Shown: positions 852-13,209, counted from the stretch's first letter. The stretch: 13,248 nt of DNA from Anaeromyxobacteraceae bacterium (GCA_041500205.1 JBGQLS010000143.1:1-13248), one strand, 5' to 3'. Notes: generated by a model not told the origin, from the letters alone. Numbers and translations: made by a program.

Positions 852-1129
852 CGGGCGCGTATGGAAGCACAAGGCTAGGCGCCGTGCCAGGTCGGCCCCC
901 CTCGTTCGGGCACGGCCCGCGCCGGAAAGGTCGTCGCCGCGCGATCGGGACGACGCGCCCGTGCACCCGGTCCTGCGGAGGTGGCGCGAAAGGGCCGTGC
1001 TATAAGCCCGCCGATGCGGCCGCGCCCTCCCTCGCCCGGCATTTCCACACCGTCGATCCCGTTCGCTTCCTTGCCCACGTCGCCACCAGCCAGTCACGCT
1101 GGTGGCCATCCCTGACCGGCTACGACGAC

Positions 1130-2095
1130 ATGCTCATCGCCCGTGACCGCCCCAAGCTCCTGTCGATCGTCATCCCCATGTACAACGAGGAGGAGGTCTT
1201 CCCGCTCCTCAAGAGGGAGCTGATCGCGCGCGAAGCGCTCTTCGGCTGCCCGGTGGAGATCATCCTCGTCGACGACGGCAGCACGGACGCCACGTACCGG
1301 CTCGTGTACCAGTGGGCGCTCGAGGACTCCTCGGTGAAGACGATCGCGCTCTCGCGCAACTTCGGCCACCAGACCGCCATCAGCGCGGGCATGGACGCCT
1401 CGAGCGGCGATGCGGTGGTGATCATGGACGCCGACCTGCAGGACCCTCCGTCGCAGATACCCGACATGATCGCTGGCTACTGCGAAGGCTACGACGTGGT
1501 GTACGGGCAGCGTGCCGAGCGGGAGGGCGAGACCTGGTTCAAGCGCGCCAGCGCGAGCCTCTTCTACAAGCTGATGCGCCGCTTCGTGGACGAGAGGTTG
1601 CCCGCCAACACCGGAGACTTCCGGCTGGTCAGCCGCCGGGTGATCGAAGACCTGCGCCGGATCCGAGAGCACGACCGCTTCGTTCGCGGACTGGTGGCGT
1701 GGGTCGGCTACCCGCAGAAGGCGTTGCCGTACGTGCGCCCGGCCCGTGCCGCCGGCAAGACGAAGTACCCGCTGGTGAAGATGCTGCGGTTCGCCATGCA
1801 TGCGATCCTGTCGTTCTCCGCGCTGCCGCTCAGGCTCATCGCCTATGCCGGTTTCCTCAGTGTCCTCCTGAGCTTCGTCTACCTCTTGCGCACGCTCTAC
1901 CAGTACTTCTTTCACAACGAGGTGCTGGTGGTGGGGTGGGCGTCCCTGTCGGTGTTGGTCACCTTCTTCTCGGGCGTGATCCTCATGTCGCTCGGGTTGC
2001 TGGGCCTCTACGTGGCGAAGATCCACGTCGAGGTGCTGGGCCGGCCGATCTACCTCGTCAGGCACTCGACCAATTTCGAGAAGGAGCCGCGCTGA
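1130..2095 (+). CDS. GT2 polyprenyl-phosphate glycosyltransferase (ArnC / GtrB / dolichol-phosphate-mannose-synthase-like)
   Basis: The long ORF 884-2095 is trimmed to the ATG at 1130 (MLIARDRPKLLSIVIPMYNEE...). The region upstream of that ATG is R/P/G-rich junk. Motifs: SIVIPMYNEE, ILVDDGSTD, IMDADLQDPP, and a DxD-type GT-A fold. Two C-terminal TM helices are followed by KIHVEVLGRPIY, which is diagnostic of ArnC/GtrB/DPM1-type enzymes. TGA stop at 2093-2095. Confidence 0.85.
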   Translation: MLIARDRPKLLSIVIPMYNEEEVFPLLKRELIAREALFGCPVEIILVDDGSTDATYRLVYQWALEDSSVKTIALSRNFGHQTAISAGMDASSGDAVVIMDADLQDPPSQIPDMIAGYCEGYDVVYGQRAEREGETWFKRASASLFYKLMRRFVDERLPANTGDFRLVSRRVIEDLRRIREHDRFVRGLVAWVGYPQKALPYVRPARAAGKTKYPLVKMLRFAMHAILSFSALPLRLIAYAGFLSVLLSFVYLLRTLYQYFFHNEVLVVGWASLSVLVTFFSGVILMSLGLLGLYVAKIHVEVLGRPIYLVRHSTNFEKEPR

Positions 2096-2259
2096 CCGCG
2101 CGCGCGGTCGCAGGAGCCTACGCGGCCGCGGAGACCGCGCCTGTGCCTTGCGAGGATGACGATCGGTCCGGCGCACCCGCTCGGGCCAGCTTGATGACGC
2201 GCCGACAGCCGGCGACAGCCGCCAGCGCTCCGAAGACAGCATACGGAGAACTCCAGGCT

Positions 2260-2300
2260 CCCGGCAGAGTTCCGAACCCGGAGTGGGGCGCCGGCAGAGT
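2260..2300. promoter_or_regulatory. Direct repeat CCGGCAGAGTT x2 (2260-2270 and 2290-2300, period 30 bp) 55-95 bp upstream of the TolC-like start. Candidate regulator binding site.
   Basis: Exact 11-bp direct repeat read in the sequence, lying in a 260-bp intergenic region. A function is inferred only from its position. Confidence 0.2.
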
Positions 2301-2355
2301 TGTTGAGCGACCGTCGGCGCTGGACTAGGTTGTCCACTCGCTCGATGGAGCCACC

Positions 2356-3747
2356 TTGCCAGCCGCTCTCGCCCTCCTCTCCCTCGCCCTGGCCGCGCCC
2401 GTCTGCGGGCCGCTCGACGCCGACGCCGCGCTCGCGGTCGCGGCCGGCAACGCGGACGAGATCGCCATCAAGCGGGCGGAGCTCGCTGCCGCCGAGGCTG
2501 ACCTGACCATCGCGCGCGCGGCGCGCTTCTTCCCCGTGGCGACCGCCACGGTGCTGGGCGGACTCGTTCCGGGGGCGCACACGCGCGGCCCGCTGCCGGG
2601 CATTCCCGGCACGGAAATCCTGAACCCCGACACGACGAACCGCAGCTTGAGCGACCTCGGCCCGTTCGTCCGGGTCGACGTCGACGTCGCGCAGCCGATC
2701 TTCACGTGGGGCCGCCTCGACGCCGCGCGCGACGCCGCCACCGCGGGCGTGAAGGCGCGTCAGAGTCTCGTCGCCGACAAGCTGTCGGAGCTGCGCGTGC
2801 GCATCACCCAGCTCTTCTGGGGCGAGACGCTGGCGCGCCGGCTGCTCGCCATCGCCAGCGACGTCGAGAAGAACCTGGCGCAGGTGAATGACAAGCTCGA
2901 CGAGCTCCTCAAGAGCGGCGACGACTCGGTGAAGCAGGCCGATCGCTATCGCTTGGAGGTGTACAAGGGGACGCTCCGCAAGCGGAAGGCGGAGGCGCAG
3001 AAGGGTGTGGATCTCGCCCACGGCGGGCTGGCGGCGACGCTCGGGCTCGCGCCCGCGGCCCTGACGCTGCGCGAGGGGAGCCTCCCCCTCGATCCGGGCG
3101 ACGCCCCGGATGCCGAGCGCGCCCGGGCCGAGGCCGAGCGGCAGCGCCCCGACGTCTCCGCGCTCGACCTCGCCATCGCGGCGCGTGGCGCCGAGGTGCG
3201 CGCCGCCCAGGCGGCCATGAAGCCCCAGTTCTTCCTGGGCGGCACCTTCAGCTACGCGTACGCGCCGAACCGCGACACCCAGCTCAATCCGTGGATTCAC
3301 GACGACTTCAACCACCTCGGGGTCGGCCTCGCGCTCGGCTTCCGGCAGGACCTCGCGTTTCCCCTGCTCGCGGCGCAAGCCAGCAAGGCGAGCGCCGAGG
3401 GCGAGACGCTTCTGCGGCAGCGGGAAGGGCTCGTGCGGCTCGTGGCGCAGCAGGTCGACGCGGCGCTATCGGAGGTCCAGTCGGCGCGCGAGCGCCTCGC
3501 TGCCGCGACGAGCGCGTTCGGGTCGGGCAAGGCGTGGTTCCGCTCCGCCGGGCTCGACTTCGAGGCGGGCGTCGGCGAGCCGAAGGACGTCATCGAGGCC
3601 TATGCTGCGTTCATCGAGCTCCAGGTGGACCAGCAGCAGGCGGCGTACGACCTCCTCGTGGCGCGCGCGAAGCTCGACCAAGCCTCCGGCGTGGTGCCGC
3701 GCGTGGGCTCCGATCCCTGCGCCGCGGCCGCCGCCGGCTTGCACTAG
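2356..3747 (+). CDS. TolC-like outer membrane efflux protein (OEP family outer membrane factor)
   Basis: 463-aa ORF. The mature N-terminus LDADAALAVAAGNADEIAIKRAEL... matches the OEP repeat start (L..Al..AL..NP.L). The protein is alpha-helical and coiled-coil rich with Q/A/L heptads, and the C-terminal repeat ...EVQSARERLAAATSAFGSGKAWFRSAGLDFEAGVGEPKDVIEAYAAFIELQVDQQQAAYDLLVARAKL matches the second TolC repeat. The start is TTG at 2356. It is the only start codon after the in-frame TAG at 2326-2328, and it gives an uncharged signal-like N-terminus, so the start is uncertain. Confidence 0.7.
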   Translation: MPAALALLSLALAAPVCGPLDADAALAVAAGNADEIAIKRAELAAAEADLTIARAARFFPVATATVLGGLVPGAHTRGPLPGIPGTEILNPDTTNRSLSDLGPFVRVDVDVAQPIFTWGRLDAARDAATAGVKARQSLVADKLSELRVRITQLFWGETLARRLLAIASDVEKNLAQVNDKLDELLKSGDDSVKQADRYRLEVYKGTLRKRKAEAQKGVDLAHGGLAATLGLAPAALTLREGSLPLDPGDAPDAERARAEAERQRPDVSALDLAIAARGAEVRAAQAAMKPQFFLGGTFSYAYAPNRDTQLNPWIHDDFNHLGVGLALGFRQDLAFPLLAAQASKASAEGETLLRQREGLVRLVAQQVDAALSEVQSARERLAAATSAFGSGKAWFRSAGLDFEAGVGEPKDVIEAYAAFIELQVDQQQAAYDLLVARAKLDQASGVVPRVGSDPCAAAAAGLH

Positions 3748-3888
3748 TGGTGCGCGCCGAAAGTCTCGAGCCGGTGGCCGCGCCGCGCGCTTGACCGCGC
3801 CCATGCGCCTTGAGAGGGTTGCCCAGAACACCGGTCCCGTCGCCGCGGTGAACGATCCGCGTCGCATCCCTTCGTTGCTCCTCCCTCA

Positions 3889-3905
3889 CATAGCCTGTGG
3901 CTATG
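3889..3905. promoter_or_regulatory. Perfect 7-bp inverted repeat CATAGCC-TGT-GGCTATG in the 433-bp TolC-RND intergenic region
   Basis: Read directly from the sequence. It may be an operator or a small RNA hairpin, but there is no further support. Confidence 0.2.
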
Positions 3906-4180
3906 CTCGGCCGTCGCCGGCCTGCTTGCGTCTCGCTCGCCTGGCTCGGTCCCCGGTATTCTGAACAACCCTGTGAGCTGTCCAGCGAGGTCTTCGATCC
4001 GGAGCACCTGGCTCGAGGGTGAGCCGGATCTGTCGATCGCGACGCCGATCGCGACCTTCCGGGAAGGGCCTGACGCCGTGGAGATCTCCGACGTGGCCGG
4101 CGCCGCGCAGCCTGGGAGCGGGTAGGCGCGGCGCGACGAGCGGCCCACCCCCGTCGCGTGGTATCAAGCGTCCGGCTCTC

Positions 4181-6769
4181 ATGGACGACTTCACGCGCAC
4201 GTCCCTCCAGCGCTTGACGGCCGCGTCGTTGCGCCACCCCTGGCGCTTCCTCGCCGGCGCTGTCGCGATGGCCCTCGCCGCCGGATACCTCGCCTCGCAG
4301 CTCGAGATCCGCTCGAGCTTCGAGGAGCTGTTGCCGACCGACGTCCCGAGCGTGCGGGAGATCAAGACGCTCATCCAGCGCGTGGGCGGCGATGGCACGG
4401 TGTACGTCGTCGTGCAGGCGCTCGAGGGCGGAGGCGGGCTCCCCGCGGCGGAGGCGCTCGCGCGCGAGCTGGCGGACGACTACCGCGCCATGGGCCCCAA
4501 GGTCATCCGGTCCGTCGAGGCGACCGTGACGCCCGTCGAGCGATGGTACGCGGATCACTGGCCGCTCTTCGTCGACCTCGACGACCTGCGCAAGGCGCGC
4601 GACGAGCTCGGCCGAGCCATCGGACAGGCGAAGTCGAGCGCGCTCTTCGACTTGGGGCTCGACGAGGACGAGGGCGAGGGGAAAAAGGCGCTCTCCGAGG
4701 AGGAGCTGCGCAAGATCCCCCTCCTCGACCCCTCCCAACCCTTGCCGCGCGAGCAGGTCGCAAAGAGGTTTGCCCGCTACAAGGACGGCTTCATGGTGGC
4801 CGACGACGGCCGCTCGGTGCTGGTCATCACCCGGCCGGCGGGGACGAGCCTCGCCGTCTCGCAGGCGCGGGCGCTCATCGACGACATGCGCAGGGTGGCG
4901 GACCGCCGCGCGCCCGAGATGCAGGCAAAGCGGCTGCGCGTGGGCTTCGCCGGGAGCTTCCCCGTCTTCGTGGCCGAGTACGAGGCCATCATCAACGACG
5001 TCTTCTCGACCTTCGCGCTGTGCGTCTCGATCATCCTCGCCTCGCTCGTGCTCTTCTACCGGGACGTGCGCTCGACGGCGGCGCTGGGCGCCTCGGTCCT
5101 GACCGCCGTCGCGGTCACCTTCGGGCTCACGCGCCTCGTCATCGGCTACCTCAACACGCAGACGGCGTTCCTCGGCGCGATCGTCATGGGGAACGGCATC
5201 AACTACGGGGTCATCTACCTGGCGCGCGTCGCGCAGCTGCGCCGGCAGGGGACGCCGCTCGAGGCCGCGGTGCAGGAGGGGGCCGCGGTCGCCTGGCGCG
5301 CGACCTTGCTCGCCTCCGTGGCGACCAGCGTCTCCTTCGGCACCCTCATCGTGGCAGCCAACCGCGGCTTCCGCCACTTCGGCTTCATCGGCGGGATCGG
5401 CATGGTGCTGTGCTGGGCCTTCACCTTCGCGCTCGTCCCGGCGCTGCTCGCCGCGATGGAGCGGGTGCGCCCGTACCGCCCGCGCGTCTCGGCGGGCCCG
5501 CCCGGCTGGAACGTCGCCTGGCTCGCGCGCCTGCTGGCGCGGCCGCGGCCCGTGGTCGGGATCTTCGCCGTCCTGACGGTCGTCGCGCTGGCGCTCTTCG
5601 TCCGCTACCTGCCGCGCGCGATGGAGCTCAACCTCGACAACCTCACCAACGACATCAAGGGCAACGACGTCCTGAAGCGCGACCAGACGCTCGCGAACAA
5701 CGCTCTGGGCAAGTCGTCGTCGTCGGTCCTGGCGCTCCTCCCCTCGCGGGACGTCGCCGATCGCTACTGCGACGTCATCCGCCAGCGCCAGAAGGACCCG
5801 CGCTGGAAGGAGCTCATCGACGGCTGCGAGACGGTCTCGAGCGTGTTGCCGCGCTACCAGGAGGAGAAGCTCCAGGTCATCCGCGACATCGCCGGCCGCC
5901 TCTCGCCTGCGGTCCTCTCGCGGCTCCCCGGCGAGCTGGCGCGCCGGGCGAGCGCGATCCGCGCCGACCTCGTCGCGCAGAGCCCCGTCTCGGCCCGCGA
6001 TGCGCCGCCGTCGCTCCTCGACGCCTTCCGCGAGCGCGACGGCACGGTGGGCCGCATCGCCGTGGTGACGGCCAAGTCGTACGCGCACATCGAGCTCGCG
6101 CCCAACCTGCGCGCGTTCGCGGCCGGCGTGCGCGGGATCGAGATCGACGGCGCGATCTACGACGCGACCGGCGAGACGGTGGTCTTCGCCGACCTCCTCT
6201 CCAACATCGAGCGCGAGGGGCCGCTCACCACGGCGCTGTCGTTCCTGTGCGTGTGCCTGCTGGTCCTGATCTCCGTGCGCAACGTCCGCGGCACCGTGCT
6301 CGTGAACGGCACGCTGGCCATGGGCGTCATGCTGATGGCCGGGGTGGCCGCGGTGCTCGACGTGAAGATCAACTTCTTCAACTTCATCGTCTACCCCATC
6401 ACCTTCGGTGTCGCCGTCGACTACGGCGCGAACGTGCTCGCGCGCGTGCGCGCCCGCGGCGCCGTCCTGCCGGCCCTGGCCGAGGTCGGGCCCGCCGTGG
6501 CGCTCTGCTCCTGGACGTCCATCGTGGGGTACGGCTCGTTGCTCTTCTCGCTCAACCGCGCGCTGCGCTCGTTCGGCTGGTACGCCATGGCGGGCGAGGT
6601 CACCACGGTCCTGACGGCGCTCGTGCTCCTGCCGGCCACCATGCTGGCGTTCCCTGGCGCGAGGGGCGGCGCGTCCGCCCTCCCCGTCTCCGGAGAGCCC
6701 CCGGCGCGAGGCGCGCCGCTCCAGCGCGCGGCGGGGAGCGGCAGCCGCGAGGAGGCGCGCCCGCGCTGA
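4181..6769 (+). CDS. RND-superfamily exporter of the MMPL / HpnN-like family (862 aa, two transmembrane bundles)
   Basis: The ORF 4019-6769 is trimmed to the ATG at 4181 (MDDFTRTSLQRLTAASLRHPWRFLAGAVAMALAAGYLASQLEIRSSFEELLP...), which is the canonical MMPL N-terminus. Two 6-TM blocks (about aa 330-470 and 700-860) are separated by large soluble domains, and the sterol-sensing-like segment GAIVMGNGINYGVIYLARV is present. The 825-aa minus-strand ORF 3611-6088 that overlaps it is a low-complexity antisense artefact. Confidence 0.85.
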   Translation: MDDFTRTSLQRLTAASLRHPWRFLAGAVAMALAAGYLASQLEIRSSFEELLPTDVPSVREIKTLIQRVGGDGTVYVVVQALEGGGGLPAAEALARELADDYRAMGPKVIRSVEATVTPVERWYADHWPLFVDLDDLRKARDELGRAIGQAKSSALFDLGLDEDEGEGKKALSEEELRKIPLLDPSQPLPREQVAKRFARYKDGFMVADDGRSVLVITRPAGTSLAVSQARALIDDMRRVADRRAPEMQAKRLRVGFAGSFPVFVAEYEAIINDVFSTFALCVSIILASLVLFYRDVRSTAALGASVLTAVAVTFGLTRLVIGYLNTQTAFLGAIVMGNGINYGVIYLARVAQLRRQGTPLEAAVQEGAAVAWRATLLASVATSVSFGTLIVAANRGFRHFGFIGGIGMVLCWAFTFALVPALLAAMERVRPYRPRVSAGPPGWNVAWLARLLARPRPVVGIFAVLTVVALALFVRYLPRAMELNLDNLTNDIKGNDVLKRDQTLANNALGKSSSSVLALLPSRDVADRYCDVIRQRQKDPRWKELIDGCETVSSVLPRYQEEKLQVIRDIAGRLSPAVLSRLPGELARRASAIRADLVAQSPVSARDAPPSLLDAFRERDGTVGRIAVVTAKSYAHIELAPNLRAFAAGVRGIEIDGAIYDATGETVVFADLLSNIEREGPLTTALSFLCVCLLVLISVRNVRGTVLVNGTLAMGVMLMAGVAAVLDVKINFFNFIVYPITFGVAVDYGANVLARVRARGAVLPALAEVGPAVALCSWTSIVGYGSLLFSLNRALRSFGWYAMAGEVTTVLTALVLLPATMLAFPGARGGASALPVSGEPPARGAPLQRAAGSGSREEARPR

Positions 6770-6801
6770 GCGAAGCGGGCCGCGATCTCGGGGCCCCGTC
6801 T

Positions 6802-6826
6802 CCCTCTCCCTCCGCGAGGGAGAGGG
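6802..6826 (+). terminator. Perfect 11-bp GC-rich hairpin CCCTCTCCCTC-CGC-GAGGGAGAGGG followed by TT, 33 nt after the RND stop and between convergent genes
   Basis: The arms are exact reverse complements (read directly). Only TT follows, which is a weak U-tract as is common in high-GC genomes. A second GC-rich stem, GGGCGGG-N13-CCCGCCC, lies at about 6868-6894. Confidence 0.45.
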
Positions 6827-6922
6827 TTCGGGGTGAGGGAGGCTCGGGGACGGCCGCGCTGGGAGGGCGGGTCGCGCTGCGGGCCCCGCCCCCCCCCTCG
6901 CGATCTCCTCTCGAGCAGCGGA

Positions 6923-8317
6923 TCAGAGCGAGCGCAGGAAGTTCAGCAGGTCCTGCTTCTCACCATTGGCGAGTCGACCGTAGCGAGCGATGACGCCGTT
7001 GGCCTCGCTGCCCTGGCTCGCATGAGCCTGGATGGCCTCCACCAGATTGCTCGTCCGGCCGTCATGGTGGAAGAAGAGCCGCTGCCCGAGGCCCCATAGC
7101 GGCGCGGTGCGGAACTCCCGGGGACCTGCGGCGCCCTGCAGGATGTCGTCCGCGAGCCCCGCCCCCATGTCGTGCAGCAGCAGGTCGGAGTAGAGCTGCG
7201 CCTTCTTGCCGCTGAGGGCTTCGCTCGTCATCTTGCCCGTGGTGAGCGAGGGTGTGTGGCACAAGGCGCAGCCGATCCGCTCGAACTGCGTGCGCCCCTG
7301 GGCGATGGAGCGGGTGTCCGGAGCTGGCGTGGGCGGCGCCAGGAAGCGCATGAAGGCGGCGAACTTGACGATGTCGGGGTGCGTCGCCTGCGTGTCGTTG
7401 GTGAAGGTGCTGCCGTCGTCCTCGATGAGCGGGTTGAACTGGCAGGCTGGGTCTTCCTCGCGCTCCTGGCGGAAGATCTCGTTCGTCACGCCCGTCTCGA
7501 CGTTGTAGGCCTCCCCGGCGAAGAGGAGCAGCGACTTGTTCTGGGCCTTCCAGCCGAAGCGGGTGATGGTCCCGTCGTTGCCGTTGCGGTTCTCGCGACC
7601 GGAGATGCCCAGCTCCGCCTTGGCGGAGCGGTTGGCCGTCTTGTTGGCGAGGATCGCCTGGTCCGGGATGGACTCGATGAGCCCGGTACCGAAGACGGGG
7701 GTGGGGGTCCGGAAGATGAGGTTGCTGTTGCCTCCCTGCCCGGTGAGGGGATCGCCGGCGGGCAGGAAGCTGGGCTGGGCGATGTTGCAGCCGGGGGCGT
7801 CCTTGCGTCCTGTGATGACGAACAGGTTGGTGACGCCGCCGTCGCGCGTCCCGTCGGGCTTGAGCTTGAACCGCGCTTCCCGGATCGGCCCGTTGGCCAC
7901 CACGAACCAGGGGACCTGGTTCTGGGCGCCGTTGAGGCTGGCCACCGCGACCTCCGGGTTCAGCGCGGGGCTCGTCCCGCCGGCAGCAGGCTGGGCGTGG
8001 CAGCCGACGCAGCTGTCCAGGTTGAAGCGAGGGCCGAGCCCCTCGGCCACGCCGTCCGTCTCGTGGAAGGCGCCCATGCCCGTGTCGAAGAAGGCCTGCT
8101 CCTGTGCAGTCAGGCCGGGCAAGGCGCTCCCCGCGCCGGCGGGCCCGCCCCGGACCCCCGGGTCAACAGCGCCGGCGGGGGGGCGGCTTCGCCCGCTCGA
8201 GACGTCCGCTGCCGACGCGGACCCGAGGGGCAAGAGCAGGAGTGACGCGACGAGTGCCCGGGCCGAGAAGCGGGGAGATTGAGGCTGACGCGGCCGACAG
8301 TTACGATGAGTTAACAT
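6923..8317 (-). CDS. Di-heme c-type cytochrome, DUF1111-like (putative thiol oxidoreductase / peroxidase family), secreted
   Basis: Two CxxCH heme motifs (CVGCH and CALCH) lie about 290 aa apart, which fits DUF1111 rather than a classical CcpA/MauG spacing. The signal peptide RFSARALVASLLLLPLGSASA^AD has an AxA cleavage site. The start was chosen at the ATG at 8317 (MLTHRN...) because a strong SD (AGGAG) sits 5 nt upstream. The track ORF extends to 8455 but that N-terminal extension looks non-coding. Stop is TGA (complement of 6923-6925). Confidence 0.7.
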   Translation of the reverse strand: MLTHRNCRPRQPQSPRFSARALVASLLLLPLGSASAADVSSGRSRPPAGAVDPGVRGGPAGAGSALPGLTAQEQAFFDTGMGAFHETDGVAEGLGPRFNLDSCVGCHAQPAAGGTSPALNPEVAVASLNGAQNQVPWFVVANGPIREARFKLKPDGTRDGGVTNLFVITGRKDAPGCNIAQPSFLPAGDPLTGQGGNSNLIFRTPTPVFGTGLIESIPDQAILANKTANRSAKAELGISGRENRNGNDGTITRFGWKAQNKSLLLFAGEAYNVETGVTNEIFRQEREEDPACQFNPLIEDDGSTFTNDTQATHPDIVKFAAFMRFLAPPTPAPDTRSIAQGRTQFERIGCALCHTPSLTTGKMTSEALSGKKAQLYSDLLLHDMGAGLADDILQGAAGPREFRTAPLWGLGQRLFFHHDGRTSNLVEAIQAHASQGSEANGVIARYGRLANGEKQDLLNFLRSL

Positions 8318-8454
8318 GGCTACTCCTGACATGCCTCGGCGCCCGGCGCAGAGGCGACGATAGTTGAGGTGCGAAGTACCGGGCTCGCGGGACAGTGGTG
8401 CAGCACCCCTCCGCGTGACGACTCCCCGTGTGAGGTGCCACCAACAGGCATTCA

Positions 8455-8471
8455 TGGAACGGAGCGTTCCA
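8455..8471. promoter_or_regulatory. Perfect palindrome TGGAACG-GAG-CGTTCCA about 140 bp upstream of the di-heme cytochrome gene. Candidate operator.
   Basis: Exact 7-bp inverted arms read in the sequence. It sits within a 445-bp lower-GC non-coding region (8318-8763). Confidence 0.25.
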
Positions 8472-9676: not shown

Positions 9677-9747
9677 GGGGAGAGAGGGGCTGGCGCCCGA
9701 GGATCGGCCCCCTCACCCTAACCCTCTCTCCCGGTGGGGGAGAGGGG
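9677..9747. repeat. Three copies of a GGGAGAG(AG)GGG / CCCTCTCTCCC motif: GGGGAGAGAGGGG at 9677-9689, CCCTCTCTCCC at 9722-9732 and GGGGGAGAGGGG at 9736-9747. They form alternative hairpins in the SPFH-EamA intergenic region.
   Basis: The middle copy is the exact reverse complement of the first (11/11) and pairs imperfectly (about 10 bp with one bulge) with the third. The same motif family forms the hairpin at 6802-6826. Confidence 0.4.
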
Positions 9748-9787
9748 ATTGGTATGGAATCAAAGGTATTTCTTACTGATTGCTGCT

Positions 9788-10888
9788 CTAGGGCACCTTG
9801 GTGCCGCATTCCGGGCAGAACTTGGCGCCTGGAGCGAGCTCCTTCTTGCAATTGGCGCAGGTGAGCGCCTGAGGCGCACCGCACTCCGCGCAGAACCTGG
9901 CACCCGCGGCGACGGGCTTGTGGCAGGCGCGGCAGGCCACCGTGGCCGGGGCTGCGGCGGGCGCCGCACCTGCCGCGGCTGCGCCGGCGCCGAAGGCGCC
10001 CACCATCGACTGGCCCAGCCCTAGCCCGGCCCCCACGCCCACGCCGAGACCGGCCACGCCCCCCTCGTTCTTGGCCGCGTCGCGCAGCGCGCCCAGCTGC
10101 TCCACGGAGGCGTAGTTGCGCAAGGCGCCGGACTCGACGCCGGAGAGGGCGTTGATGGCCTGGGCCTCGGCCAGCTTGTCGGCGATCTTGCCGATGCGGG
10201 CCCGGGTCTCCTCGTCGAAGTCGGTGTTCTCGATCCGGAAGTCGGTTAGCTCGAAGCCGAGCTTGGCGAGCACCGGGGCGAGCCCGCCCTTCAGCGCGTC
10301 GGAGAGCTCCACCCGGTTCTTGTCGACCTCGGCGTAGCTGAAGCCCGACTCGGCGAGGAGGTCGGTGAGCGGCGTGAGGATCCGGTCGACGAGCGCCGTG
10401 CGCGCCTCGTCGATGGTGTAGGCGTGGCGGACGCTGGTGACGCCGGCGAAGAACCTCTCCGGCTCGGCCAGCCGGAAGGAGAAGTTGCCGAAGGCGCGCA
10501 GGCCGACCGGGAACTTGTACTTGGGGTCGTCGTACTTGATGGGCCCCTTGGACCCCCACTTCTGGTCCAGGAACTCGGTGGTGCGCACGAAGTAGACGTT
10601 GGCCTTGTGCTCCGACTCGAAGGCCTGGAGGATCTTCGTGAGCGTGGTCCAGAACGGGACGTTGGCCGTGGCGAGCTCGGTGAGACCCGGCTCGCGCTGC
10701 ACGGCGCGCACCTTGCCTTCGTAGACGAAGATGGCGGCCTGGCCCGGGTTGACGAGCAGCTTGGAGGCGTTCTTGAGCTCGTCGCCGCTCCCGTCCCACC
10801 GCCAGATCAGCAGGTCCGGCGCCGGATCCGCCCACTCGATGACCGACCGGAGCTGTCGCTTCACTCCACCACCGTCGAAGAGACCCAT
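9788..10888 (-). CDS. SPFH-domain protein of the Band_7_1 / YdjI-like family with a C-terminal double zinc ribbon
   Basis: The N-terminus MGLFDGGGVKRQLRSVIEWADPAPDLLIWRWDGSGDELKNASKLLVNPGQAAIFVYEGKV matches the YdjI-like SPFH start (..viEW.d...l.w.......i..gs.l.V.pgQ.A.fv..G). There is a G/A-rich linker, then two ribbons: CRAC-x10-CAEC and CANC-x10-CPEC. AGGAGG lies 7 nt upstream of the ATG at 10888. Stop is TAG (complement of 9788-9790). Confidence 0.85.
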   Translation of the reverse strand: MGLFDGGGVKRQLRSVIEWADPAPDLLIWRWDGSGDELKNASKLLVNPGQAAIFVYEGKVRAVQREPGLTELATANVPFWTTLTKILQAFESEHKANVYFVRTTEFLDQKWGSKGPIKYDDPKYKFPVGLRAFGNFSFRLAEPERFFAGVTSVRHAYTIDEARTALVDRILTPLTDLLAESGFSYAEVDKNRVELSDALKGGLAPVLAKLGFELTDFRIENTDFDEETRARIGKIADKLAEAQAINALSGVESGALRNYASVEQLGALRDAAKNEGGVAGLGVGVGAGLGLGQSMVGAFGAGAAAAGAAPAAAPATVACRACHKPVAAGARFCAECGAPQALTCANCKKELAPGAKFCPECGTKVP

Positions 10889-10903
10889 GGTCCGTCCTCC
10901 TGG

Positions 10904-12394
10904 TTATGTGTGCGTGTAGTCCTCGTCCTGATCGATCCGCGACAGGAGCCAGTCGAAGGCCGGGGCGCCCACCAGTGCGCCACAGTATCGGCACTGTCCA
11001 GTCTGGCCCGCCGGGAGGCTCGCGCCGCACCCCGAGCAGGTGACGCCGTCGGTCCTCGCGGCCGCGAGCGTCCGCACGAAGGTCCAGTACTCGGTGAAGA
11101 CCCGCGGCGCTTCCCGACCGTCCACCACCCGGCCGCCGTCGTCCACCGACTGGTCCACCATGGAGGCGAAGATCCGGACGGTGATCGCGGCGTAGTACTT
11201 GTCGAGCGAGACCCGCGCGGCGTCGATGCGCGCCACCTGGATCTGGTCGAGCCGGTTGCGCAGACCAGCAGCTTGGTAGGCCTCGATCCAGTAGCGCCAG
11301 GTGGAGAAGACCGCGTCGGTGGCGAGTGGCCGGATGCCGGCGACGTCGCGGTCGCTCCAGGCCCGCTGCAGGCCGAGGAAGACCCGGCCGAAGCGATCGC
11401 GCGCCTTGGCCCAGTCGAAGTCGGGGAGACGCAGCGTCAGCGCCGCGAGATCCGCCGCCAGCGTGGGCGACTGGACGGTGGGCAGCTCGGTGCCGCGCTC
11501 CTCGGCGTAGCCGCCGAGGGCGATGGGGGGCCGGGCCTCCGCCCTGGTGACGAGGACCGTGAGCGCCGCCCAGGCCGCCTCGCCAGGCGCCGGCTTCTGG
11601 CCGCAGTACTGACAGGCGCCGTCCTCGCGCCGCTCGCTGCCGGCGCCGCAGGCCGGGCAGGCCAGCTTCGTGATCTCGCCCGGCCCTTTGGAGCGAACGC
11701 CGGCCTTGCGGATGAAGGTCCAGGTGGTTTGCCACCAGCGCCCACCCGTGGCGCCCGTGGCGGCCAGCGCGACGTCCACGGCGATCCGGGTGGCATCGAT
11801 GCCCGGCGCGATCGAGCGGACGCGTGTGCTCCCCACCACCACGTTCTGCCAGACGCCCGCGCCGAAGGGGAGGAGGACGCGGGAGTCCGCCAGGTACCGC
11901 TCCACCAAGGCCAACCGCGGCGTTCCGGCCGCCGCCACGGCGCGCGCCGCCAGCGCCGCCACGAAGTCGAGGAAGAGCGGCTCGGAGTAGTCGGGATCGG
12001 CCTTGCGGAGCGCCTCGAACTGGAGCTGGCCGCCGCCACCGGAGGCCGCGCGCGAAGAGGCCGTCCGCTCGAGCGTGCCTGCGTCCCCGGTGGTGAAGCC
12101 GCCGCTCACGGCGGTGGAGCGCTTCACCTTCACGAAGAGAACGACGGCCACGACGAGTAGCGGGACGCCGATTGTCGGGTAGCGAAAGAGGATCTCGAGG
12201 AGGAGCAGGATGAACCCGCTGTCATCGCCGCCGCCGCCGCCGTTGGAGAAGCCGCTGCTGCTATCGTGGCTGCCGCCGGAGTAGGACTGGCCGCCGCCGC
12301 CGCGCGCGAGAGCGGCGGTCGCCGTGAGGAACAACGGCGACATGAGCAGGAGGCGCGTCGCGAGCCGGCGCGCGCGCGAACCAGGGCGGCTCAT
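10904..12394 (-). CDS. Secreted or membrane protein with two tandem [Tim44-like (NTF2-fold) domain + CxxC-x11-CxxC zinc ribbon] modules
   Basis: The ORF 10904-13201 is trimmed to the ATG at 12394, because the upstream 269 aa are R/P/G-rich off-frame junk that overlaps the next gene. From 12394 the protein has: a signal peptide MSRPGSRARRLATRLLLMSPLFLTATAALA; a Gly/Ser-rich low-complexity linker; a TM helix ILLLLEILFRYPTIGVPLLVVAVVLF; a Tim44-like domain 1 (...WQTTWTFIRKAG) followed by CPAC-x11-CQYC; and a Tim44-like domain 2 (DFDWAKARDRFGRVFLGLQ...EYWTFVRTL) followed by CSGC-x11-CRYC. The start overlaps the upstream gene's stop (ATGA). TAA stop at 10904-10906. Confidence 0.75.
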   Translation of the reverse strand: MSRPGSRARRLATRLLLMSPLFLTATAALARGGGGQSYSGGSHDSSSGFSNGGGGGDDSGFILLLLEILFRYPTIGVPLLVVAVVLFVKVKRSTAVSGGFTTGDAGTLERTASSRAASGGGGQLQFEALRKADPDYSEPLFLDFVAALAARAVAAAGTPRLALVERYLADSRVLLPFGAGVWQNVVVGSTRVRSIAPGIDATRIAVDVALAATGATGGRWWQTTWTFIRKAGVRSKGPGEITKLACPACGAGSERREDGACQYCGQKPAPGEAAWAALTVLVTRAEARPPIALGGYAEERGTELPTVQSPTLAADLAALTLRLPDFDWAKARDRFGRVFLGLQRAWSDRDVAGIRPLATDAVFSTWRYWIEAYQAAGLRNRLDQIQVARIDAARVSLDKYYAAITVRIFASMVDQSVDDGGRVVDGREAPRVFTEYWTFVRTLAAARTDGVTCSGCGASLPAGQTGQCRYCGALVGAPAFDWLLSRIDQDEDYTHT

Positions 12395-13008
12395 CCTGTC
12401 ACCGGGGCGTCGGGTAGCTCGTTCACGTCGTCGGGGCTGGCGGGCAGATGCCGGGTCGCGACGCGGCGGAGGTGATCGAGGAACGCGAGGAGGGCCTTGG
12501 CCGCGTCGGGTGCGTCGAAGAGGCGCGCCGTCTCGGCGCGGAGGGCGGCGAGCGACGCGGAGGGGAGGGCGCGGGCGAGCCCGTCGTCGGGCAGGAACAC
12601 CGCCCGCCGCTCGAGGAGGGAGAGGTAGACGAGCATGCCGGTGTGGGCGTGGGTCCGGAAGATCGCTTGACGGCAGAAGGCGCTTTCGGCCCCCACCTCC
12701 ACGCGGCGCTCCTTCACCCGGCCCGGCAGGAGGAGCCGCTCGAGCGGAGCCAGCGCGCGGCCGAGCAAGCCCACGAGGAGCGCCAGCCCGGTCGAGTCGA
12801 TGGCCACGTGGAGGGCGCTCACGTCCGGGAAGAAGGCCGCGGCCGCCGCCTGGAAGAGCAGGACCGCGACCAGCGACGCCGTCAGGGTGACGTCCCAGTG
12901 GGCGGCCGAGCGCGGGACGATGGTGACCACCACCTCGGCGGCCGACGACTGCTCGATCCTCTGGACCGCAGCCACGATCTCGCGGCGCAGCGCTTCGTCG
13001 ACACGCAA
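12391..13008 (-). CDS. Divergent TPM (UPF0603/TLP18.3-like) domain protein. Start ambiguous: TTG at 13008 preceded by a perfect AGGAGG (6-nt spacer), or GTG at 13104.
   Basis: EIVAAVQRIEQSSAAEVVVTIVPRS ... HTGMLVYLSLLERRAVFLPDDGLARAL resembles the TPM core (..qvvVvtvps... dnGvLllva..dR.vrievGyGl) with an Ala-rich insertion of about 70 aa. There is no signal peptide or clear TM helix. The TGA stop overlaps the ATG of the downstream gene. Confidence 0.45.
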   Translation of the reverse strand: MRVDEALRREIVAAVQRIEQSSAAEVVVTIVPRSAAHWDVTLTASLVAVLLFQAAAAAFFPDVSALHVAIDSTGLALLVGLLGRALAPLERLLLPGRVKERRVEVGAESAFCRQAIFRTHAHTGMLVYLSLLERRAVFLPDDGLARALPSASLAALRAETARLFDAPDAAKALLAFLDHLRRVATRHLPASPDDVNELPDAPVTG

Positions 13009-13194
13009 CGGGGACCTCCTCCGAACCAGCGAAGGCGACGTTACCCCAACGCCGGTTGTCCGATCTAGACGATTGGTAGAAGGCTCCGCGCCTGGAGCAG
13101 GCACTCAAGTACGCATATATGCCTCGCGGGCTCGTCCTTCGTCCGTCCGTGCTGCGACACCGAAGCTGACGCCTGAAGGCGAGCGGGGCGAGAA

Positions 13195-13209
13195 CTGGCA
13201 CGCTGCCAG
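13195..13209. promoter_or_regulatory. Palindrome CTGGCA-CGC-TGCCAG 20 bp upstream of a plus-strand ATG. It lies in the divergent promoter region, which also contains the AT-rich palindrome GCATATATGC (13113-13122).
   Basis: Exact inverted repeats read in the sequence. The region 13040-13140 is conspicuously lower in GC than its surroundings. Confidence 0.2.

Follow-up and report, generated by a model that had tools for sequence, protein, structure and literature searches.

Soluble SPFH proteins of the Band_7_1 type are common in bacteria, and to our knowledge the only one that has been studied is YdjI (SamI) of Bacillus subtilis, which depends on two membrane partners. Specifically, YdjI lacks an anchor of its own and needs YdjG and YdjH for its localisation at the membrane (PMC8581546), it bridges PspA to these two proteins (PMC8581546, PMC9239133), and SamI has lately been described as restraining a SamG-SamH sensor complex, with PspA being dispensable for the phenotype (2026 preprint, bioRxiv 10.64898/2026.02.06.704340). 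More generally, TPM and Band-7 proteins have been proposed to be partners with an assembly or chaperone-like role at the membrane, and the ribbons of YdjG accompany an NTF2-like domain (PMC11237479). In the B. subtilis locus itself (L094), Pfam recognises pspA (PF04012), ydjG (TFIIB ribbons), ydjH (TPM, E 1.1e-21) and ydjI (Band_7_1 plus a ribbon), with pspA immediately upstream of ydjG. A locus that resembles this PspA-YdjGHI stress module, and is not a copy of it, lies in a contig of an Anaeromyxobacteraceae bacterium (GCA_041500205.1, JBGQLS010000143.1:1-13248). The whole 13,248-nucleotide (nt) stretch, with a G+C content of about 71%, is called the window here, and the three genes of the locus are called A (a TPM-fold protein), B (a tandem Tim44-like/zinc-ribbon protein) and C (an SPFH protein).

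The SamGHI operon and A-B-C are alike in combining an SPFH protein with a TPM-domain membrane protein and a membrane protein that carries two zinc ribbons. YdjI/SamI and C share the succession of Band_7_1, low-complexity linker and C-terminal zinc ribbon, as well as the lack of a transmembrane (TM) segment; the NTF2-like domain of YdjG may be set beside the NTF2-type Tim44 fold of B, both standing next to zinc ribbons; and the two membrane genes seem to be translationally coupled in either case, through a 1-nt overlap of ydjG and ydjH and a 4-nt overlap of A and B. The gene order differs, since the TPM gene precedes the ribbon gene here, whereas ydjG precedes ydjH in Bacillus. As far as sequence and fold comparisons go, the likeness to YdjGHI amounts to homology for C and to domain-level parallelism for A and B, and A and B together appear to be an old, widely distributed and uncharacterised two-gene module. 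Other SPFH systems (HflK/C-FtsH, stomatin/QmcA-NfeD and FloT-NfeD2) follow a shared logic, in which an SPFH scaffold is encoded beside the membrane protein or proteins that it organises. Unlike HflK/C-FtsH, QmcA-NfeD and FloT-NfeD2, however, A-B-C has a soluble Band_7_1 protein, neither NfeD nor a protease, and partners of the TPM and Tim44-like kinds. A first-pass annotation of the window, made from the sequence alone, had called the combination seemingly undescribed, and indeed no description of the A-B pair or of the A-B-C triad was found in the searchable literature, where the closest text is a paragraph on YdjGHI (PMC11237479).

Gene layout and predicted proteins

The three genes are open reading frames (ORFs) on the minus strand, and the 4-nt ATGA overlap and the 15-nt spacer with an AGGAGG that the first-pass annotation had described can all be read in the sequence at those places (Table 1). 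The spacer follows the TAA stop codon of B (10906-10904), and its AGGAGG, the Shine-Dalgarno sequence of gene C (10901-10896), is located 7 nt 5′ of the ATG at 10888. The extent initially given for the locus, 9788-13104, holds at its lower end and for the positions of the genes, but at its upper end it is that of the longest ORF, whose first GTG is at 13104. This GTG was rejected as the start of A in favour of the TTG at 13008, which is most likely the true start because it is preceded by a ribosome-binding site (GGAGGAGG), a 205-amino-acid (aa) product is called by the gene callers in two independent assemblies, and the homologues of A are 203-220 aa long (mostly 205-210 aa), with an alignment that begins at the residue encoded by this very codon. 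The ATGA overlap is consistent with translational coupling of A and B. A fixed stoichiometry of all three products and a part in lipid handling, which were also proposed at first, may be inferred from such a layout and such domains.

Table 1. Features of the A-B-C locus and of its 3′ flank, with positions in the window
Feature	Position	Strand	Details and basis
GGAGGAGG Shine-Dalgarno sequence of gene A	13015..13022	(-)	6 nt 5′ of TTG 13008; read in the sequence
Gene A	12391..13008	(-)	205 aa; likely start TTG 13008; longest ORF to 13104
A/B ATGA overlap	12391..12394	(-)	TGA stop of A at 12393-12391, ATG of B at 12394-12392
Gene B	10904..12394	(-)	496 aa, ATG start
B aa 11-29, N-terminal hydrophobic helix	12308..12364	(-)	hydropathy, alignment, AlphaFold2 helix 4-27
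B aa 30-58, RxGGGxSYSGG motif and Gly/Ser-rich disordered segment	12221..12307	(-)	alignment, pLDDT <50
B aa 59-97, TM helix	12104..12220	(-)	Kyte-Doolittle mean 2.13; AlphaFold2 helices 59-71 and 73-97
B repeat 1 (aa 122-288), Tim44-like NTF2-type domain and ribbon 1	11531..12031	(-)	hhalign, AlphaFold2 secondary structure
B repeat 2 (aa 305-493), Tim44 domain and ribbon 2	10916..11482	(-)	Pfam, alignment, hhalign, AlphaFold2, Foldseek
B-C spacer ccAGGAGGacggacc, 15 nt	10889..10903	(-)	between TAA of B and ATG of C
Gene C	9788..10888	(-)	366 aa, ATG start
GC-rich hairpin (CCCTCTCTCCC / GGGGGAGAGGG)	9720..9750	(-)	38-68 nt 3′ of the stop of C, no U-tract
pLDDT, predicted local distance difference test score

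The assignment of A to the TPM proteins, which had been made by inspection, is borne out across its family and by its predicted fold. Although the 205-aa protein itself is a borderline case for the Pfam family TPM_phosphatase (PF04536; 22.2 bits against a cutoff of 22.1), 36 of 42 A-family members match it (best E 5.5e-13), and the AlphaFold2 model of A (pLDDT 92.5) has TPM structures as all of its 15 best Foldseek matches in the PDB. These structures include BA42 (2lt2; E 7e-7, TMt 0.84), TLP18.3, Psb32, PG_0361, cg2496, BA41, Rhom172_1776 and a subunit of the mycobacterial III2-IV2 supercomplex. What did not hold up is the claim that this protein is without a membrane anchor. A hairpin of two hydrophobic helices (aa 38-94; Kyte-Doolittle 19-residue means 2.08 and 1.67) is placed, in the model and by hydropathy, after the first strand of the TPM fold, and A is best understood as a membrane protein held by this inserted hairpin. 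Both halves of the TPM domain are predicted to be cytoplasmic, because there is no signal peptide and the segment C-terminal of the hairpin is strongly basic.

The fold and the core motifs are common to A and the canonical TPM proteins (AtTLP18.3/Psb32, BA42/BA41, E. coli YgcG and B. subtilis YdjH), which typically display their TPM domain outside the cytoplasm and possess a signal peptide, a C-terminal TM helix and a Gly-rich tail. A, in contrast, has no signal peptide, carries the two-helix hydrophobic insertion within its fold, and ends in a NELPD motif that is invariant in the family alignment. This motif (residues 196-200 of A, window 12391-12420) can be compared with GT(E/D)LPT in the conserved linker between the two repeats of B (residues ~299-309, window 11468-11500); that such ELP-type motifs in the tail of A and in the linker of B might serve as docking strands is pure speculation.

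The N-terminal part of B contains, as had been recognised at first, a signal-like helix, a Gly/Ser-rich segment and a TM helix, as supported by hydropathy, the family alignment and the AlphaFold2 model. The first helix is preceded by a positively charged N-terminus and ends in A-L-A ahead of R31, and it is a putative signal peptide or signal anchor. R31 is invariant among 26 aligned family members, as are G33, G34 and G35, while Pro73 within the TM helix is also invariant and a basic flank (KVKRS) follows that helix. By the positive-inside rule, the Gly/Ser-rich segment would be periplasmic and the Tim44 and ribbon domains cytoplasmic. Bacterial Tim44-like proteins typically have just such an N-terminal layout, in which a signal-like helix and a Gly-rich RxGGG stretch precede a TM helix. 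The invariant GGGxSYSGG of this segment is reminiscent of GGTSYSGSRGSF in the C-terminal tail of YdjH from B. subtilis (L094:6026-6790); both stretches are of low complexity, and their predicted locations are on opposite membrane faces, so that the likeness may mean little.

The remainder of B, which had been read as two Tim44-like domains with zinc ribbons, proves to be correctly described, even though Pfam sees only one copy. Tim44 (PF04280) is found at aa 316-445 only (E 6.4e-20, 72.2 bits against a threshold of 29.6), together with weak ribbon matches at 245-267 and 447-475. However, when aa 118-280 are compared with aa 296-496 by hhalign, the two parts align over 154 columns with a probability of 99.65% and an E-value of 4.8e-25, and on this ground the Tim44-like domain and its zinc ribbon are taken to be duplicated in tandem in B. 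The eight ribbon cysteines form two CxxC...CxxC sets (C246, C249, C261 and C264 in ribbon 1; C453, C456, C468 and C471 in ribbon 2) that are invariant or nearly so in the same 26-member alignment, and a conserved tail, FDWxLSRIDQDEDY, follows repeat 2. In the AlphaFold2 model (pLDDT 73.9, with both repeats mostly above 80) each ribbon sits between the penultimate and the last strand of its domain. The best Foldseek matches of this model in the PDB are the mitoribosomal protein mL45 and the C-terminal domain of Tim44 (E ~1e-6; range 1e-6 to 1e-4 for mL45, 2cw9 and 3qk9), and the profile of the B family finds mL45 in the PDB by sequence as well (E 2.4e-7). Single-sequence PDB searches with B and with C gave no match, whereas profile and fold searches did so for B.

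B can therefore be placed beside the Tim44/mL45/TimA family (PF04280, COG4395 'Tim44-family lipid-binding protein'), as its second repeat passes the Pfam threshold and has the same fold, and it differs from that family in the duplication of the domain and in the Cys4 ribbon ahead of the last strand of each copy. Moreover, B scores far below the cutoff of the TimA equivalog (NCBIfam NF033778; 44.4 bits against 200), and its gene is paired with one for a TPM-hairpin protein. Two relatives of B of about 800 aa (P0346 and P0362) have roughly 300 extra N-terminal residues with further Tim44-like DPxFS repeat starts and no ribbon. These had been considered as possible A-B fusions of the 'Rosetta stone' kind, which was rejected since the extra N-terminus is Tim44-like and is not an A domain.

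For C, the initial description as a YdjI-like SPFH/zinc-ribbon protein is upheld by Pfam and by full-length homology. Band_7_1 (PF13421) covers aa 28-234 (E 1.7e-41, 142.7 bits against a cutoff of 24), and a Gly/Ala-rich linker separates it from a C-terminal double zinc ribbon (DZR, aa 319-365, E 1.3e-9). BLASTP aligns C with YdjI of L094 from end to end (23% identity, E 1e-30). No hydrophobic segment is present in C (hydropathy maximum 1.4), which is predicted to be a soluble SPFH protein.

The A-B pair across bacteria and the adjoining SPFH gene

Relatives of B are widespread: a pattern scan with one genome per species finds them in at least 565 genomes, and a hidden Markov model search of 1.84 billion representatives returns 1,497 clusters (at 50% identity) with E <= 1e-30. 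The 80 loci that were fetched for B come from Myxococcota, Acidobacteriota, Vulcanimicrobiota, Planctomycetota, Bacteroidota, Bdellovibrionota, several proteobacterial classes and others. A homologue of A immediately precedes B, in the same orientation, at 78 of the 92 B-carrying loci, and the exceptions are mostly contig ends or paralogues. The pair is also present in a cultured myxobacterium, Melittangium boletus, and homologues of A occur in Corallococcus. Moreover, the stop codon of A overlaps a start codon in the frame of B by 4 nt (NTGA) at 61 of 75 non-redundant loci from many phyla. Besides A, clustering of the ORFs within 6 kb around B yielded no broadly conserved neighbour; it returned the Band_7_1 gene and, in one subclade, a Ser/Thr-kinase, with most of the large clusters being antisense shadow ORFs.

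Within the nearer relatives, the order A-B-C recurs with the same 4-nt overlap and the same 15-nt gap between B and C in L007 and L014, while the spacer between B and C is 42 nt long in L008, and gene C also adjoins B in L016. Since order, overlap and spacing are repeated in L007 and L014, and the NTGA overlap at so many further loci, the arrangement can be taken as not being due to chance. The proposal of a conserved triad thus stands in part: the three genes are kept as neighbours in L007, L008, L014 and L016, but the evolutionary unit is not the triad, and judging from these comparisons the conserved unit is the A-B pair, which is widespread across phyla.

The SPFH gene is distributed more narrowly. 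A Band_7_1 gene follows B in the closest relatives (L007 and L014, with 67-68% identity in B), in the next clade out (L008 and L016, 44-45%) and in one metagenome-assembled genome (MAG) of the Thermoanaerobaculia (L076), and it stands upstream on the opposite strand in two MAGs of the Bdellovibrionota (L035 and L061). In L009-L013, which are more distant contexts, and in M. boletus, the pair has no Band_7_1 neighbour. When counted by distance, Band_7_1 genes occur at 8 loci within 3.5 kb of the pair (0.50 Mb of sequence) and nowhere in the 0.66 Mb of farther flanks, and it appears unlikely that the link between the two is a matter of chance. The C-terminal modules of the pair-linked Band_7_1 proteins vary, with two or three zinc ribbons, SHOCT or a GYF-like domain, and because of these differences at least three independent associations with an SPFH gene can be assumed. 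The SPFH gene is an addition confined to the subclade of the window and two or three further lineages, one that joined the pair in the lineage considered here.

There are also B paralogues in other settings. Two B-family genes stand in tandem with no upstream A at L045:1120-4358, and Tb.RUG.239 and CTOTU7676 are among the genomes that have two or three paralogues of B, some of them without A. Upstream of one such paralogue without A, there is a gene for a VWA-domain protein that also has a TM helix and a double zinc ribbon (L023:2970-4154), and this protein may be an alternative partner of the B paralogue.

Flanking sequences and neighbouring genes

Downstream of C, 142 nt separate the locus from a gene for an EamA transporter, which was left out of the unit because it is not conserved as a neighbour in L007 or L008. 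The hairpin in this gap (Table 1) is a possible end point of the operon ahead of the EamA gene; its folding energy is no better than that of shuffled controls (z = -1.04), and a terminator scan found nothing. The hairpin forms part of a set of nested GC-rich inverted repeats at window 9678-9750 (GGGAGAGAGGG / CCCTCTCTCCC / GGGGGAGAGGG, then TTAGGGTGAGGGG), which occurs once in the window and looks like a repeat-element-type palindrome. Upstream of A, a perfect palindrome (CTGGCAgcgTGCCAG, window 13180-13205) might be bound by a regulator; the upstream regions of L007, L014 and L015 do not share it. In L007 a rhomboid gene lies divergently from A, and it was dropped as a partner since it is not conserved at any other locus.

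Farther away, window 884-8455 encodes a family-2 glycosyltransferase, a TolC-like outer-membrane efflux protein, an MMPL/RND-type transporter and a di-haem oxidoreductase (DHOR), and none of these genes is conserved beside A-B-C in other genomes. In L009:12034-17564 (and also in L010), where the pair has no Band_7_1 neighbour, genes for an amine oxidase, a spermine synthase and a DUF4178 protein are found just downstream on the opposite strand, and polyamine operons of this kind have been described as PSP-associated (PMC11237479). B is followed in L009 by a secreted-looking protein of 172 aa with no Pfam match. Finally, in M. boletus (L095:1036-6440) a CRISPR-Cas 'dev' cluster (Cas6, Cas3, DevT and DevR) is found at a distance of about 3.5 kb from the pair, a proximity that is probably coincidental since unrelated genes lie between the two.

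A proposed membrane complex and its alternatives

Taken together with the B. subtilis precedent, these findings lead us to lean, with somewhat more confidence than doubt, towards a reading in which A and B recruit C to the membrane as a scaffold or regulator and the three serve membrane or envelope homeostasis without an operon-encoded PspA. The three proteins would form one complex at the inner membrane, on its cytoplasmic side. In such a complex, the TPM fold of A would be tethered in the membrane by its inserted hairpin, and B would expose a short Gly/Ser-rich segment on the outside and hold its Tim44-like domains, each with a Cys4 zinc ribbon, in the cytoplasm. The Tim44 fold serves for membrane attachment in both Tim44 and mL45. 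Co-produced in fixed proportion by translational coupling, A and B would assemble into a membrane complex that acts as a receptor or sensor, analogous to YdjG/YdjH, and C would be the oligomeric SPFH scaffold or regulator that is recruited by them.

Several observations weigh against this reading. The adjacent SPFH gene is missing at about 79 of the 87 loci that have the pair, so that the core function of the pair needs no C in cis. The comparison with Bacillus is also uneven, and the 'YdjGHI-like' label of the first-pass annotation can be kept for C, by homology, but hardly for the rest: the alignment of the B family (A1) with the YdjG family (A3) by hhalign is confined to one zinc ribbon (43 columns, probability 82%), the middle domain of YdjG aligns with neither repeat of B (probability <1%), A shows no sequence similarity to YdjH in a comparison where the YdjH side is a single sequence, and the gene order is swapped. 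A and YdjH do have in common that both are TPM-fold proteins. Their architectures differ, as YdjH has a signal peptide, a TPM domain predicted to be external, a TM helix and a tail, whereas A has a hairpin within its fold and a TPM domain predicted to be cytoplasmic; likewise, in YdjG a middle domain stands between N-terminal TFIIB-type ribbons and a C-terminal TM helix, whereas B has N-terminal TM segments and two Tim44 repeats. With the TPM domain of YdjH predicted outside and that of A inside, the mechanism known from B. subtilis may not transfer. Furthermore, the topology is predicted from hydropathy and charge rules, the contacts among A, B and C are suggested by analogy, and neither a stress-type promoter nor a conserved upstream element was found in a 5′ alignment of four close relatives or in sigma-70 and terminator scans.

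The fact that the pair stands alone at most loci and in most phyla is what one would expect if A and B had a self-contained, SPFH-independent job, for example in tethering or assembling another membrane complex, with C as an incidental, co-transcribed neighbour. The structural matches of both proteins fit this explanation, namely those of A to Psb32, TLP18.3 and the subunit of the mycobacterial III2-IV2 supercomplex, and those of B to mL45 and Tim44. TPM proteins take part in the repair of photosystem II and in the respiratory supercomplex of mycobacteria, and mL45 and Tim44 dock machines to the membrane. We nevertheless consider it unlikely, given that Band_7_1 genes with differing tail domains have come to lie beside the pair in at least three separate lineages, that the 15-nt spacing of B and C, with a ribosome-binding site of its own, is kept at 67% protein identity, and that the same three domain types are united in B. 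subtilis (PMC8581546). To about the same degree doubtful, at the opposite end, is a bolder extension of the recruitment reading, in which the A-B pair would be a hitherto unrecognised, phylum-spanning membrane platform and the dedicated receptor of soluble SPFH proteins of the Band_7_1 type, including those not encoded in cis, with YdjG/YdjH being analogous or very distantly related.

A closer likeness to Bacillus would be given if A, B and C belonged to an ordinary Psp-type envelope stress system, recruiting to the membrane a PspA or LiaH that is encoded elsewhere. C is a homologue of YdjI, which links PspA to YdjG/YdjH (PMC8581546, PMC9239133), and in L009 the pair adjoins the spermine-synthase/DUF4178/amine-oxidase operon whose kind is called PSP-associated (PMC11237479). 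However, PspA_IM30 was detected neither in the window, nor among the Pfam matches of nine related contexts, nor at 93 loci searched by jackhmmer with the PspA proteins of B. subtilis and E. coli. The initial statement that the locus has no pspA therefore agrees with what is seen in the window and within 10 kb in related contigs, and a pspA just beyond the window, which had been named as the finding that would speak against the annotation, is not seen in the closest long related contig (L007, 1.7 Mb). As the developmental phenotype of SamGHI does not need PspA even in B. subtilis (bioRxiv 10.64898/2026.02.06.704340), a Psp system of the ordinary type is regarded as quite improbable here.

Still far less probable is an anti-phage role of the abortive-infection type, or another membrane-acting conflict system, which had been left as an option in the first place. 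SPFH proteins and zinc ribbons are known from some conflict systems, the pair is patchily distributed over phyla, and there is the CRISPR-Cas (dev) cluster at 3.5 kb in Melittangium. Yet neither A nor C has a match in PADLOC-DB 2.0, where B reaches only E 0.058 against ZorF, no relatives are found in viral contigs, the neighbours are varied housekeeping and transport genes with no defence-island signature, and none of the three proteins has an effector domain (nuclease, pore-former or NADase), which leaves the suggestion with no support.

On the favoured reading, that of C recruited by A and B, the locus presents the same SPFH protein on a different pair of partners, built from the same kinds of domains (TPM, zinc ribbon, NTF2-type fold and TM helix). 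An SPFH protein with dedicated membrane partners is known; a TPM-hairpin protein and a double-Tim44-ribbon protein as such partners are not known to have been described. The locus would not overturn current thinking, but it exposes the A-B pair as a large, uncharacterised and translationally coupled family that extends to cultured myxobacteria, and the pair offers a tractable route to the roles of bacterial Tim44-like proteins and cytoplasmic TPM proteins, as well as to the membrane targeting of SPFH proteins without PspA. If A and B should indeed be a dedicated receptor in the wider sense, this would point to a general 'SPFH receptor' principle and to a bacterial Tim44 fold that tethers scaffolds to the inner membrane.

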